A stretch of 64,000 nucleotides of DNA from Nitrosopumilus sp. (GTDB lineage Archaea > Thermoproteota > Nitrososphaeria > Nitrososphaerales > Nitrosopumilaceae): NCBI GenBank assembly GCA_965223425.1, contig OZ245003.1, positions 1,248,001 to 1,312,000 on the forward strand, written 5' to 3'. The notes beneath the pieces are model-generated. The model was not told where the DNA came from. It did not search any database and saw nothing but the letters and a program-made list of their open reading frames with translations. Both the position numbers and the translations under genes were made by a program. Positions 11,334 through 52,546 of the stretch are shown here, piece by piece. Every line of letters starts with the position of its first letter. Position 1 is the first letter of the stretch.

Positions 11334-11612
11334 TTATTGTTTTTCAATAATTTTGTTTTCTGGAATTGAACTAATATAATTCACCAGGCTTCTATAATAT
11401 TTCAAATGAAAGCCCAAATCTCTTATTTCTGTTTGCTTTAACTCTTCTAACTCAGGTCCAAAATCCCTTCTGTCTGTTTGAATCTGGTTTAGTACACCTT
11501 CATTCACTTCAATCATGTGAAATAGACTGTGCAGCACTTCGCCTTTTGTGAGCGTGTTATCGCATGATTTTTTTAGCAACGTTTCAATCCAATCCATGTT
11601 TATTGAATTCAA
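11334..11612 (-). CDS. hypothetical protein
   Basis: 92-aa ORF; the true start may be MDWIET. Confidence 0.6.
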   Translation of the reverse strand: MNSINMDWIETLLKKSCDNTLTKGEVLHSLFHMIEVNEGVLNQIQTDRRDFGPELEELKQTEIRDLGFHLKYYRSLVNYISSIPENKIIEKQ

Positions 11613-11683
11613 AGTTGTTATATCCAGACCTGAATTTGATAAATTCTGACCTTTACTCTATTTTTTTTAGTTTAGGCTTACAA

Positions 11684-11815
11684 TTATTTTCTTGATGCCC
11701 GTTTTTTTCGGTTCATAATTTCCTTGTTTCTTTCTACATCTGAATGAACTTCTACATGTTCGTATAGCTGTTCTTTTGAATCAAACATCTGTTCACAGTA
11801 ATAACATTGATGCAT
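11684..11815 (-). CDS. Small C2H2 zinc-finger protein (43 aa)
   Basis: MHQCYYCEQMFDSKEQLYEHVEVHSD...; canonical CxxC-x3-F-x5-L-x2-H-x3-H. Confidence 0.75.
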   Translation of the reverse strand: MHQCYYCEQMFDSKEQLYEHVEVHSDVERNKEIMNRKKRASRK

Positions 11816-11837
11816 TTTATAATTACGTCAATCTTAG

Positions 11838-12030
11838 ATTAATTACTTTCTGTATTGGGTTCTGTGAAGTTATCGGGAGTTAACCCCTATAACTCGACTT
11901 TGACATATCGACTATTCGGATTACCGATGGTGTGCCGGATTCCGTCATCGCCGGCTCAAAAGTGCCGGACTGCGCTTCACATATGTCATCTCTACTGCCC
12001 CTAAACCTAGGGGGCAGCTTGCGTGATATG
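11838..12030 (-). ncRNA. Predicted TnpB omegaRNA (scaffold about 12030..11858 plus about 20-nt guide from flanking DNA)
   Basis: Stems CUGCCCC/GGGGCAG (11995-12017), UGACAUAU/AUAUGUCA (11981-11988 with 11901-11908), CCGGC/GCCGG (11951-11968), terminal hairpin 11868-11894; loop GGUUU can pair with the terminal GAACC; position matches the known tnpB 3'/right-end overlap. Confidence 0.6.
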
Positions 12031-13148
12031 TTGTTCATGGCAGCGACAATATCCCTGTCCATAAACAAACCGCAATTATTACACGACAGTTTACGATGCT
12101 GTTGCATGTCCTCTTGGAGTCTCTTTCCGCATTGCGGACACTGCGTGCTCGTGTTTCTTGGGTCTACTGTCTCGACTGGTGGGAGCCCGACCCATCGGGC
12201 TTTGTATTCTATTTGGCGTTGCAGCTCGTAGAATTGCCACCCGTTCAATCTGCGCCTGTACTTGTTGCCTTGACTGTTTCCTTTTCGGTACAATTTTCTT
12301 ATTCCTTTCAGGTTTTCCATGACGATTGCAGTCTTGTTTTTGACTGCGTTGTCTACTATATCCTTTGAGATTCTGTGGATGTACTGCCTTGCTCTGTCAG
12401 TCAGTCTTCTCTGTCTTTCCTTGCAGAACTGATTTTTCTTCCTGCGGTCATTTCTGTGGAAGCCTGCCCTGGCGTGTACTGTGTTCTCCTTTATGGATAA
12501 CAGTTTGTTTGTCTTGCAGACTGTCACCCCTTCCTTGTTCCCACACGTCACATTTCTTAGGTTTCTGTCTATTCCAACTTTCTTGGTGCACTCTATCTCT
12601 TGTACTTTTTTTGAAACACAAAGACTGATGTTGAGGGCAGTCAGTGAAAACGAGCGCACCGTCAGGGCGGGATCAGACAGGATTTTTTGGGTGTGATCGT
12701 TGAGTAAGATGTTGATTGGGTTATGCTTCTTGTATGGGATTGTTAGTAGTGCACCGTTGTGTTTTATGCCGTAACAGTTTGTCATAAAGGGATTTTTGAC
12801 TATTGGGTCTCTTATTCGGACACCTCGTTTGACTGATTGTTTTCTGTTTGATAATGTGCCTGCAGCTCTTGATATTGCACATATCTTGTATGACGATAAA
12901 ATGTCATAGTTACGCAATTCATGACAACATAACATGGACAGCCTCTTCATATCGTGAGTGTCTTCTTTCAACCCTATCTTGATGCAATGATTGGCCATCT
13001 TTGTGAATGTAGCCGCCATATCCATTAGGTCAGAGTTCGGCGCATATTTCTGTGATATTGGCTTTATCGCCTTCAGCGAATATCTTGCGGTTTGGAGGCT
13101 TGTACATTTTGGGAATTGACATGTAACTCCCGATAACTTCACAGAACC
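11858..13148 (-). mobile_element. Non-autonomous TIR-bounded element carrying only tnpB
   Basis: Perfect 25-bp TIR ggttctgtgaagttatcgggagtta (11858-11882 / 13124-13148); 8-bp direct repeat ctgtattg on both flanks (11850-11857, 13149-13156). Confidence 0.92.
11880..13142 (-). CDS. tnpB: RNA-guided endonuclease TnpB (IS200/IS605 OrfB family)
   Basis: RuvC-I VGIDRN, RuvC-II IVMENL, zinc ribbon CPQCG..CNNCG, RuvC-III MDRDIVAAMN, all catalytic residues present; the true start is probably internal (first ATG at 13025). Confidence 0.95.
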   Translation of the reverse strand: MKLSGVTCQFPKCTSLQTARYSLKAIKPISQKYAPNSDLMDMAATFTKMANHCIKIGLKEDTHDMKRLSMLCCHELRNYDILSSYKICAISRAAGTLSNRKQSVKRGVRIRDPIVKNPFMTNCYGIKHNGALLTIPYKKHNPINILLNDHTQKILSDPALTVRSFSLTALNISLCVSKKVQEIECTKKVGIDRNLRNVTCGNKEGVTVCKTNKLLSIKENTVHARAGFHRNDRRKKNQFCKERQRRLTDRARQYIHRISKDIVDNAVKNKTAIVMENLKGIRKLYRKGNSQGNKYRRRLNGWQFYELQRQIEYKARWVGLPPVETVDPRNTSTQCPQCGKRLQEDMQQHRKLSCNNCGLFMDRDIVAAMNNISRKLPPRFRGSRDDICEAQSGTFEPAMTESGTPSVIRIVDMSKSSYRG

Positions 13149-13190
13149 CTGTATTGTATGAAAAATTTGTTCCTGTATTCTGTTAAACGT

Positions 13191-13529
13191 TCATGAAGTT
13201 TCTAACTCAATTTCGAAATTACATATGGGCAGCTTGCCTGATTCGTTTTTGAACTGTTCTATTAGTTGAAGCTGACGCTCTTTTGGACTGCCTGTAAATT
13301 CTCTTTGGTATGATTGAGTTTTCTGCTTGCATTCATTTCCTTCAAAATTGGTATCTACATATTTTGTAAATATTTTTTCTAGATTATTTGATTCACCAAC
13401 ATATATTGCCTCTTTTTGTCTGTTGTATAATACGTATACTCCTGGAATTGGTTTAACGAATTTAGCGCTCTCGAGCCAAACCCTCATTTTATCATCAAGT
13501 AGCTGCTGCATACTTGAAGATATTTTCAC
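13191..13529 (-). CDS. GIY-YIG nuclease-like protein
   Basis: PGVYVLYN...IYVGESNNL motif. Confidence 0.8.
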   Translation of the reverse strand: MKISSSMQQLLDDKMRVWLESAKFVKPIPGVYVLYNRQKEAIYVGESNNLEKIFTKYVDTNFEGNECKQKTQSYQREFTGSPKERQLQLIEQFKNESGKLPICNFEIELETS

Positions 13530-50113: not shown

Positions 50114-50150
50114 AGTTTGAACTTATCTTGTTTCAAAAATTAGAATAAAA

Positions 50151-50630
50151 ATCAACGGTGAGCAGAATTATTTGTTTGCAAGTATGGATGATGATGCAGG
50201 ATACTGGCTGGCTAGTGATAGTGCAGACAACAGGTTCCAGCACAATGCAGACAATCTGCCATCCATGACAAAACTACGGGCTGGAAAGAATCCAAGAAAT
50301 TTCACCACTGACGGTTTTTTTTATCTTACATGAAATCCTCCAAGAAGGTTTTTGGAAAAAAAATCAATCATGTCAGACACATTCATCTCAAAGGTTATGT
50401 GAATAACAACAAAATGGAGAGGCTGAGCGGTAAAATTCTAGATCGTGAAAAGGTTTTCAATGGATTAAAGAAGATGGATGCGGCAATACTTGATGGATGA
50501 AAGTTTATTACAATTTCATTAAAAAACACGGTTCATTAAAGGGCAGACCCCTGCAGAGGCCTCGCTTGTTGAGGTAGATGGGGTTAACAAGTGGAAAGCT
50601 ATCACCCAAAACGCTTTACTTAACAAAGAT
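50151..50630 (+). pseudogene. IS6-like DDE transposase remnant (C-terminal half, several frameshifts)
   Basis: NYLFASMDDD, TDG, RHIHLKG, NNNKMERL, YYNFIKKH, TPAEA fragments across frames. Confidence 0.7.
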
Positions 50631-51420: not shown

Positions 51421-52546
51421 GTGAATTGGATTAACAATCGCTCACAAAACAGACAACATTATTCAACCACAAGATCTAGATCCCAGTGTATGGCAGAATC
51501 CGCATGAAATACAACGATTCTGCAATACCGGCAGACAAAAGATTCCTGTCCGGCGTCTCCAGTGTGCGCCTGCGCAGCATGCAAAAAAAGGAGACAGATC
51601 CCAGGGCCGCAGCAAGGCTGCTGGCATATGCCATGCGCAAGGAGGGCATGTCCATACGCCGGATATGCATGGCCCTCAACAGGTCATATTCCACAGTACG
51701 GGGCTGGCTTGTGCGCGCCGCACAGCTTGGCACCTACGGCAGGTACGACATCAAAAACAAAGGCGCGCCAAACAAGCTCGATCCGGAACAGACAAAGCAG
51801 CTGCGCGCAGACCTGCTGGCAGGCCCGCGCAGTTGCGGGTTCGAGTCCGGAGTGTGGACGGCACCGCTGCTGGCCGTACACATCAGAAAAAAGTTCGGCG
51901 TGCAGTATGCCACTGTCAGCATATATGACATACTGCACAGGATGGGCTTTTCGTGCAGAAAGCCGCGTCCAAAGCACCCAAGTCAGCCTCAGAATCAGAG
52001 AAAAAAGAGTTTAAAAAAAAGCAGGGGAGATAATCCGGAGCCATCCAGACCATACGGTGATTACAGTTGATGAGGCCTCCTTTATCATTGGGTGGAATAC
52101 CAAGAACGGGTGGTACCTCAAGGGCAAGCCCGTCACCACTCCAGTCAGCCTGTCGCGCAAAAGGTTCTACTCGTTTGGGGCGCTGTACGACGGCGGCTTT
52201 GACTGCAGGTTCTATGCCAAGGCCAACAGCTACAGCTTTGTGGACATGCTCGGACACCTGCATCTCAAGCACGGCAAGATCATCGTCTTTCTTGATAACG
52301 CATCATACCACAAGTCAAAGATGGTCAATGATTTTGTCGACTCGTATGACGGCGACATAGTCCTTGTTTACTTGCCCGTGTACACCCCGGAGCTGAATAC
52401 CACGGAGGGGCAGTGGAGGCTGTTAAGAAGGGCCACTGCAAACGTGATGTATGAAAGCACAAAGGTGATGAAGGAATCCATATGGACAATGCTGGATAGA
52501 CGTGAGGTCAAGATAACAAGAATGAGCGGTTATTTATCCTAGTCAC
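51421..52546 (+). mobile_element. IS630-family element with a two-ORF transposase (51486..52542)
   Basis: Imperfect TIR gtgaattggatta / ttatcctagtcac flanked by TA; HTH ORF plus DDE ORF (VDEAS, LDNASYH, YTPELNTTE); slippery tttaaaaaaaag at about 52010 and an apparent extra 1-bp loss near 51980. Confidence 0.88.

Follow-up and report, generated by a model that had tools for sequence, protein, structure and literature searches.

A tnpB element of Nitrosopumilus with IS6-like inverted ends and a candidate target motif abutting its target-site duplication

A 64,000-nucleotide stretch of the genome of Nitrosopumilus sp. (contig OZ245003.1; G000:C1:1248001-1312000), hereafter the window, contains at window positions 11858-13148 a 1291-bp unit whose entire length is occupied by one intact tnpB gene. 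We consider it probable that this unit is a non-autonomous transposon of the IS6 type enclosing an OMEGA module (for obligate mobile element-guided activity), that its RNA guide starts in the target-site duplication, and that the TnpB nuclease acts on empty alleles. The host genome, G000, comprises 2.64 Mb in 2 contigs with 41% GC. The parts of the element and its immediate flanks are as follows, in window coordinates.

11838..11857, minus strand: predicted guide template, the first ~20 nt past the tnpB-3' end (8-bp duplication plus 12 nt of flank), placed from the position of the TTR motif at the other end
11850..11857, no strand: target-site duplication, left copy, CTGTATTG, read from the sequence
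11858..11882, no strand: terminal inverted repeat on the tnpB-3' side, which is the right end when read along the gene, from the arm match; contigs break here
11858..11901, minus strand: predicted terminal RNA hairpin, in which the post-scaffold segment pairs with the inner inverted repeat and AGAACC is left free at the 3' end, from the fold
11880..13142, minus strand: tnpB open reading frame (ORF), 420 amino acids from GTG 13142, with conserved coding from ~13076 and an ATG at 13025, from the ORF, profile matches and conservation
11896..12018, minus strand: conserved RNA structure (omega-RNA scaffold) that overlaps the last ~60 tnpB codons, from RNAalifold on 15 sequences
13124..13148, no strand: terminal inverted repeat on the tnpB-5' side, which is the left end when read along the gene, containing the GTG start of the long ORF, from the arm match and contig breaks
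13149..13156, no strand: target-site duplication, right copy, CTGTATTG, read from the sequence
13157..13159, minus strand: position of the triplet resembling a target-adjacent motif (TAM), ATA in the window copy and TTR in the family consensus, from the flank alignment

The boundaries of the element are sharp. The two arms are perfectly complementary over 25 nt. A repeat finder returned arms of 26 nt (11857-11882 and 13124-13149, 100% complementary), but the true inverted end is 25 nt and the 26th pair is due to chance, because other copies begin at GGTTCTG; the extra pair is formed by the last base of the duplication matching its first. Searched with <=3 mismatches, the 25-mer was found in the 64-kb window at just the two arms, and in none of 100 shuffles. 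Metagenome contigs from three runs split into differing flanks precisely at 11857/11858 and at 13148. The stop codon of tnpB, TAA, sits at the inner edge of the inverted end that is right-hand in gene orientation, while the GTG start lies inside the opposite end, so that the ORF reaches from one end to the other in this genome. No transposase gene was found inside the element (11858-13148), where the only gene is tnpB. An earlier note on this DNA, made from its letters, had described an element filled end to end by one tnpB, with perfect 25-bp inverted repeats, an exact 8-bp duplication and no transposase of its own, and that description is borne out in each part, the length of the ends being settled by the other copies.

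The element is mobile. In the congeneric genome G007 the two flanks (~78-80% identical) are contiguous with no element between them, providing the empty allele that the earlier note had proposed to look for in a relative. Among the metagenome contigs none joins both flanks, and the empty allele was not seen there; one contig joint in run X6, from 11879 to 13127 (side 22), is too short for interpretation. G000 holds ten full-length copies, eight of them 1291 bp long with 95.7-98.9% mutual identity, and two (654737-656024 and 783913-785206) with one end truncated and one flank in common. It also holds two diverged tnpB variants of 1290 and 1328 bp, two tnpB copies broken by other insertion sequences, fragments, and a 344-bp derivative with an internal deletion. 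Full-length copies number about 13 in all, two of them being those with nested insertion sequences. A scan of one genome per species returned 30 related loci: 27 in a single Nitrosopumilus metagenome-assembled genome (OZ240211.1), one in CBDBLO010000002.1, one in JAPPIP010000026.1 and one further partial locus. The set analysed below consists of 41 elements in gene orientation, 13 taken from G000 and 28 drawn from among the 30 loci, the latter from three other Nitrosopumilus/Thaumarchaeota assemblies; L054 (left end not found), L068 (partial) and the two end-truncated G000 copies were left out. Forty of the 41 carry tnpB, and the remaining one is the 344-bp derivative, which keeps the 3' RNA-coding part. 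Exact 8-bp duplications, all of different sequence, flank 25 of the 41, as the earlier note had expected of further copies with the same ends; three more, likewise all different, have 7-of-8 matches and 13 have no duplication.

Several individual copies deserve separate description. L003 (G000:C1:1325308-1326598) and L008 (1451399-1452689) lie in opposite orientation and have swapped 8-bp duplications (TAACATAA / AGTTTCTA). Since flanks have been swapped between the two, recombination between copies, probably with a ~125-kb inversion, is indicated. The 344-bp derivative, L018 (G000:C1:1199933-1200276), has kept both ends and the omega-RNA part, has lost tnpB, and is bounded by an exact duplication, GGATAATT, preceded by TTG; by its sequence it is a guide-RNA-only miniature element. 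The insertion sequences nested in tnpB copies (594883-596147 in L014/L015 and 2292745-2293849 in L010/L017, both G000:C1) have ~99% identical relatives, with 55 and 18 blastn matches in the genome, some of them fragments; the second looks IS630-like, judging by its ORF. G000 is very rich in insertion sequences, and the nested families are younger than the tnpB family.

Immediately before the duplication on the tnpB-5' side, positions -3 to -1 are strongly biased. Of the 41 elements, 32 have T at -3, 38 have T at -2 and 39 have G or A at -1 (TTR in 29/41, xTR in 38/41; genome background 4.1%, binomial p ~3e-31). Past the duplication on the opposite side, the mirror position carries the motif in 3/41. 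Seven elements of the same end family that lack tnpB and have good duplications showed it, by inspection, in 1 of 14 orientations (Fisher p = 7e-5). Among 11 distant homologues, counted from published genomes only, 10 have T at -2 and 10 have R at -1. Farther out, positions -12 to -6 show a slight A/T richness. We infer that TTR is the TAM of this TnpB. An unoccupied site reads TTR, then the duplication, then the right flank, and RNA leaving the right end would read the duplication and then the right flank; because TTR stands before the duplication and the RNA would start with it, the empty site would amount to a TAM followed by a match to the guide. At an occupied element, the bases preceding the right junction are ACC, and the match at the left junction ends after 8 nt. 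This flank motif is also the one observation that bears on RNA-guided, TAM-dependent cleavage of DNA by this TnpB, an activity that is predicted here from sequence. As for the origin of the bias, either only insertions next to TTR spread or persist, or it reflects target choice.

The RNA that would carry such a guide overlaps the 3' part of the gene. RNAalifold applied to 15 tails from different subfamilies gave a consensus of 33 pairs, of which 9 show compensatory double changes, and conservation over the last ~180 nt of tnpB is far above that of the rest of the gene. For codons 321-381 the eight 1291-bp copies gave a synonymous divergence (dS) of 0.013 and a ratio of non-synonymous to synonymous divergence (dN/dS) of 1.1, and the tail is therefore constrained at the level of nucleotides rather than protein. 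An Rfam scan of 11600-13400 returned no meaningful family. The conserved scaffold stops at ...GTCAAAGTC and is followed by a variable stretch and then by the 25-nt end. The terminal hairpin predicted for the window copy has a minimum free energy of -12.2 kcal/mol (z = -2.58), and folds read by eye have the same layout in 8/10 subfamily representatives despite their differing end sequences. To judge by these folds, the terminal hairpin of the omega-RNA seems to take in the inner half of the inverted end. A pseudoknot between GTGAAG of the scaffold and CTTCAC of the end was rejected, as it is not kept in the alignment of other subfamilies. Duplex energies were also compared between cognate and non-cognate pairs of end and adjoining 'anti-repeat' segment; the cognate pair came first in 4/10, the windows overlap in families with short linkers, and the comparison was not used. 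RNA-library contigs lie on the element, and one runs from it into the flank at 11857, with DNA carry-over possible. Contig depth was greater over 11826-12053, which is not evidence of expression, because the parts of a gene cannot be ranked by contig depth and the library may contain DNA.

The encoded protein matches Pfam PF07282 at 71.8 bits (cut-off 26.3) and the NCBIfam model guided_TnpB, NF040570, at 115.3 bits (cut-off 100), and its nearest solved structures among PDB matches are Cas12f and TnpB. With residues numbered from the ATG at 13025, D153, E237 and D325 as well as the zinc-ribbon cysteines C296, C299, C315 and C318 do not vary among 11 homologues (45-100% identity), which upholds the earlier report of intact RuvC D/E/D residues and zinc ribbon; E237 and D325, the E and the last D, align to Cas12f motifs. 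The reading frame is open in 10/10 near-identical copies in the host genome, and over codons 1-320 the eight 1291-bp copies gave a dN/dS of 0.34 (dS 0.063). The gene is under purifying selection and its catalytic site is intact.

ATG 13025 was rejected as the start of tnpB, since conservation at the protein level extends ~20 codons further upstream, where a conserved motif, L-x-A-I-K-S-I-x-Q, is found. Other subfamilies have a TTG, GTG or ATG 2-4 codons ahead of this motif and a TATA-like AAATAT ~25-28 nt upstream of that start. In the G000 family (window 13076-13142, minus strand) CTG stands in place of the usual TTG start, the TATA-like box has changed and the upstream stop has been lost. 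The sole in-frame start is then GTG 13142, within the inverted end, and expression of tnpB in this family may therefore depend on flanking sequence.

The ends of the element belong to a wider group. The 16-nt end motif has 85 matches in G000 at <=3 mismatches, and a looser form of it, paired genome-wide, also bounds miniature inverted-repeat transposable elements (MITEs) of 141, 333 and 718 bp with exact 8-bp duplications. The GGTTCTGT end family is common to tnpB elements and IS6-like DDE transposase elements in the same genomes. Ends of the IS257 type begin GGTTCTG, a point that the passages of PMC7986276 do not give. Units of 4085 and 3348 bp, with 7-of-8 duplications, have DDE genes inside, and the DDE proteins match PF13610 (DDE_Tnp_IS240) at 44.7 and 52.6 bits (cut-off 27). 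In OZ240211.1 an intact-looking 1970-bp IS6-like element (L079:893-2862) is bounded by perfect ends of 29 nt and by an exact duplication, and its first 18 bases agree with the ends of the L060 subfamily of tnpB from that genome (18/18). The diverged G000 tnpB variants (1781136/2433495 subfamily) match the IS6-like element at G000:C1:793017 at 29/30 terminal bases. The main tnpB family shares its first 19 bases with the GGTACATGA family of ends (19/19), found at a truncated DDE gene at 2470372 and on the 141-bp MITEs. No second inverted end was found for the G000 IS6-like genes at 917264-918337, 793072-793977 and 2470410-2470880, which therefore look one-ended or decayed.

A full IS6-like DDE gene occurs in 0/56 tnpB loci (1.5-2.5 kb flanks), and a short fragment in one, L065. 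Since the element carries only tnpB and a guide-RNA scaffold, it must borrow a transposase. Because the ends match those of transposase elements and the 56 tnpB loci have no full transposase, mobilisation in trans by an IS6-like DDE transposase is a well-supported inference. The earlier note had likewise supposed that the element is non-autonomous, has tnpB between IS6-like, DDE-type ends and is moved in trans, and the differing duplications, the shared ends and the 56 loci agree with it. The 13 of 41 copies without a matching duplication, including one pair that arose via reciprocal exchange, are compatible with, and not specific to, cointegrate-forming transposition. A search of a plasmid collection in protein mode gave only generic TnpBs of <35% identity and was uninformative on linkage to IS6, and viral contigs searched by protein alignment gave no match.

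The transposase remnant that the earlier note had placed near 50151-50630, and had not linked to the element, is real.

50136..50627, plus strand: IS6-like DDE transposase remnant, from a tblastn match, at 43% identity, with residues 189-355 of an IS6-like ORF of the genome that looks intact

Its ORFs are broken, and no GGTTCTGT end lies nearby. Beside it, an ORF at 51486-52070 (plus strand) resembles the N-terminus of the high-copy insertion sequence nested in the tnpB copy 594234-596770; the two have a ...KKETDPR... motif in common, and the ORF is probably another copy or fragment of that insertion sequence. Elsewhere in G000, units of 6853 bp (G000:C1:1201385-1208237) and 9059 bp (1892824-1901882) have ends of the same family and exact duplications (CATTATTC and GGAGTTCT); they are either compound or cargo-carrying IS6-type transposons or IS6-like elements enlarged by nested insertions. 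The IS6-like transposases L031, L032 and L038 (G000) and L079 (OZ240211.1) are long, ~345-400 amino acids, and their N-terminal zinc-binding region gives weak matches to zinc models of the IS1/IS1595 and IS256 types. These four may represent a distinct archaeal subgroup of IS6.

In the mechanism that we propose, two 25-nt IS6-like inverted ends enclose a full OMEGA module, tnpB and the omega-RNA scaffold, and insertion with an 8-bp duplication would be carried out by an IS6-like DDE transposase encoded elsewhere. Transcription of the omega-RNA would pass along the 3' part of the gene, the right inverted end would fold its inner half back onto the adjoining 'anti-repeat', and the transcript would continue into the flank, its guide beginning with the duplicated 8 bp. 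The empty site would match both TAM (TTR) and guide, and both occupied junctions would escape. Cleavage of empty alleles by TnpB could then lead to copying-in or retention of the element.

It is also conceivable, though unlikely, that TnpB is a mere passenger or has some other role, and that TTR and the AT-rich flank reflect a target preference of the transposase or selection for a host promoter, not a TAM. The G000 family, with CTG for TTG, an altered TATA-like box and a GTG start in the inverted end, lends this some weight, as its expression may need the flank, and so does the mild A/T richness from -12 to -6. The motif is, however, sharp at -3 to -1 and one-sided. It is equally common in the copies of the other genome, which have an internal TATA-like box and a TTG start, and it is at background in the tnpB-less elements with the same ends; the invariance of the nuclease residues is likewise hard to square with a passenger. 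A still less likely alternative is an internal, fixed guide, in which case the variable segment after the scaffold would target IS6-type ends, the element's own or those of competitors. The 12-20 nt that follow ...GTCAAAGTC do vary among subfamilies as guides would, and the segment is complementary to the inverted end. By inspection, however, the complementarity includes G-U pairs and bulges, which fits an RNA hairpin and not a DNA target, an intramolecular stem was read by eye in the folds of 8/10 representatives, and an internal guide leaves TTR in the flank unexplained.

Two further explanations concern how the element came to be. That TnpB itself inserts it, the inverted ends and the duplication being TnpB products, would accord with the lack of a transposase in the element and with a TAM-like motif abutting the duplication, but we regard this as very improbable, given that the same ends and 8-bp duplications are found on tnpB-less and on IS6-like DDE elements. 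TnpB is, moreover, dispensable for transposition in the studied IS605 and IS607 systems. Passages of Bao and Jurka (PMC3627910) also have TnpB as dispensable for transposition. Hardly credible at all is chance nesting of an ordinary tnpB element of the IS200/IS605 type inside a MITE. MITEs with related ends are present in the genome, but sequence of the tnpB element runs from end to end in 41/41 elements, across several diverged subfamilies and four assemblies. The earlier note had named tnpB-free copies of the end pair and internal IS605-type ends as signs of such nesting; no copy of this end pair without tnpB sequence was found, and neither room nor signal for IS605-type ends was seen.

Several points weigh against a non-autonomous IS6-type transposon with a guide that starts in the duplication. 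The window copy itself reads ATA, not TTR, and the control set for the motif is small (7 elements, 14 orientations). The terminal hairpin reaches z <= -2.5 in only 5/10 representatives. In canonical omega-RNAs the guide directly follows the scaffold; here the conserved scaffold ends 35-110 nt short of the element end. The DDE proteins cover the whole NCBIfam IS6 profile, NF033587, at 111-122 bits, just below the cut-off of 125. In G000 no IS6-like element was found with both ends intact and exactly the main-family end sequence, so that a candidate for the autonomous partner sought by the earlier note is at hand in L079 for the L060 subfamily, and none was found in G000 for the main one. Because the copies in G000 are only 95.7-98.9% alike, the family may be inactive there. 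Finally, IS6/IS26 elements form cointegrates without excision, according to passages of a review (PMC7986276), and because they do not excise, 'restorative homing' would be without an obvious role. Since IS6 transposition is of the copy-in/cointegrate kind, a drive-like role for TnpB fits better than post-excision repair; such a role is conjecture.

The earlier note had presented a prokaryotic TnpB borne by an element with inverted repeats and target duplications as new. This was overstated, because passages of Altae-Tran et al. (2023; PMC10691335) already report TnpBs in inverted-repeat DDE transposons and lone ones moved in trans. They describe six DDE-associated TnpB branches (DDE-1 to DDE-6) bounded by inverted terminal repeats, along with lone TnpBs whose ends are near-identical and which are apparently mobilised in trans, several such branches being regularly mobilised. 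IS630 is the sole partner named in those passages; ISL2, IS630 and IS1031 are listed as partners in passages of a 2026 review (PMC13565253). The geometry given by Altae-Tran et al. in those passages matches that of the present element, with TnpB within an inverted-repeat transposon, the tnpB 3' end near the element end, and lone TnpBs moved in trans. In such a DDE-associated branch, at least some members would be expected to have a DDE gene within 1 kb of tnpB; none of the 56 loci here has a full one. A criterion of adjacency would therefore not flag this clade, in which no locus has a DDE gene beside tnpB. The clade may already be their DDE-5 branch. In the literature searched, no text was found to connect TnpB with IS6-type elements or with Thaumarchaeota, and no paper had TnpB together with Nitrosopumilus.

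Other known systems share some of these features. Like the tnpB-only elements of the IS1341 group and IS200/IS605, the present element has a single tnpB with an omega-RNA overlapping its 3' end, is non-autonomous, and has a short motif beside its left end that may serve as TAM. Those elements, as passages of two papers have it (PMC13565253, PMC3627910), lack inverted ends and duplications and rely on a Y1 HUH TnpA, whereas here there are 25-nt ends, with duplications in 25/41. In common with IS6/IS26, as covered in passages of the review (PMC7986276), it has 8-bp duplications, short near-perfect inverted ends and many copies without a matching duplication, and its candidate partner transposases are IS6-like; unlike those of IS6/IS26, these transposases are longer (~345-400 amino acids) and have an N-terminal zinc-binding extension. 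The same passages list just two MITEs and one passenger-carrying insertion sequence (ISDsp3), none with tnpB, and do not mention Thaumarchaeota. The arrangement also resembles that of Fanzor in eukaryotic transposons with terminal inverted repeats, where, in passages of two papers (PMC3627910, PMC13565253), a nuclease of the TnpB family has been captured by duplication-making DDE transposons. In Fanzor transposons the duplication takes part in target recognition, according to passages of PMC13565253. As described there, however, Fanzor systems are eukaryotic or viral, have partners from other transposon superfamilies and take as their motif a short, fixed duplication, whereas in the present family the duplication varies and the motif stands outside it. 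Measured against these published passages, what is added here is the candidate IS6-like partner in Nitrososphaeria, the apparent folding of a transposon end into the omega-RNA, and TTR abutting the duplication; the general kind of element is already published.

The clade of this TnpB is broad. In a class-wide sample, 63/301 genomes had a TnpB match at E <= 1e-15. From other genomes, mostly of other genera, 26 loci of 43-64% identity were taken, of which three come from unpublished genomes and were not counted. GGTTCTGT-type ends were found on both sides in 11/23 loci and exact 8-bp duplications in 6/23; with the unpublished genomes G252 and G157 counted, ends of this type on both sides number 13/26. 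A GTGTAATCT-type end was found on TnpBs 80% and 53% identical to the query. That end variants recur across the TnpB tree suggests end swapping. A wider proposition, which is plausible although we stop short of favouring it, is that a clade of Nitrososphaeria TnpBs lives only on borrowed IS6-type ends, switching partners and re-tuning its 'anti-repeat' each time, with a duplication-first guide, a TTR TAM, and cutting of empty alleles deciding which insertions persist.

The role of TnpB-family nucleases for DDE transposons, prokaryotic ones as well as those of eukaryotic Fanzors, is unsettled, and cut-and-paste elements gain little from such nucleases according to passages of the 2026 review (PMC13565253). 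The present family offers dozens of independent insertions, a clean one-sided motif at the duplication, an RNA scaffold that appears to incorporate the transposon end, and intact candidate partner transposases in one genome. It makes testable the TAM and the duplication-first guide, mobilisation in trans by an IS6-like transposase, and the selective persistence of TAM-adjacent insertions. Censuses of tnpB that need an adjacent transposase gene can miss DDE-borne clades of TnpB. The family, hosted by an ammonia-oxidising archaeon, is unusually clear on how the target rule of a nuclease may fit a target-duplicating transposon. Should the clade prove to live in this way on IS6-type ends that it borrows, a natural model in prokaryotes would be at hand for the role of TnpB and Fanzor nucleases in target-duplicating transposons.

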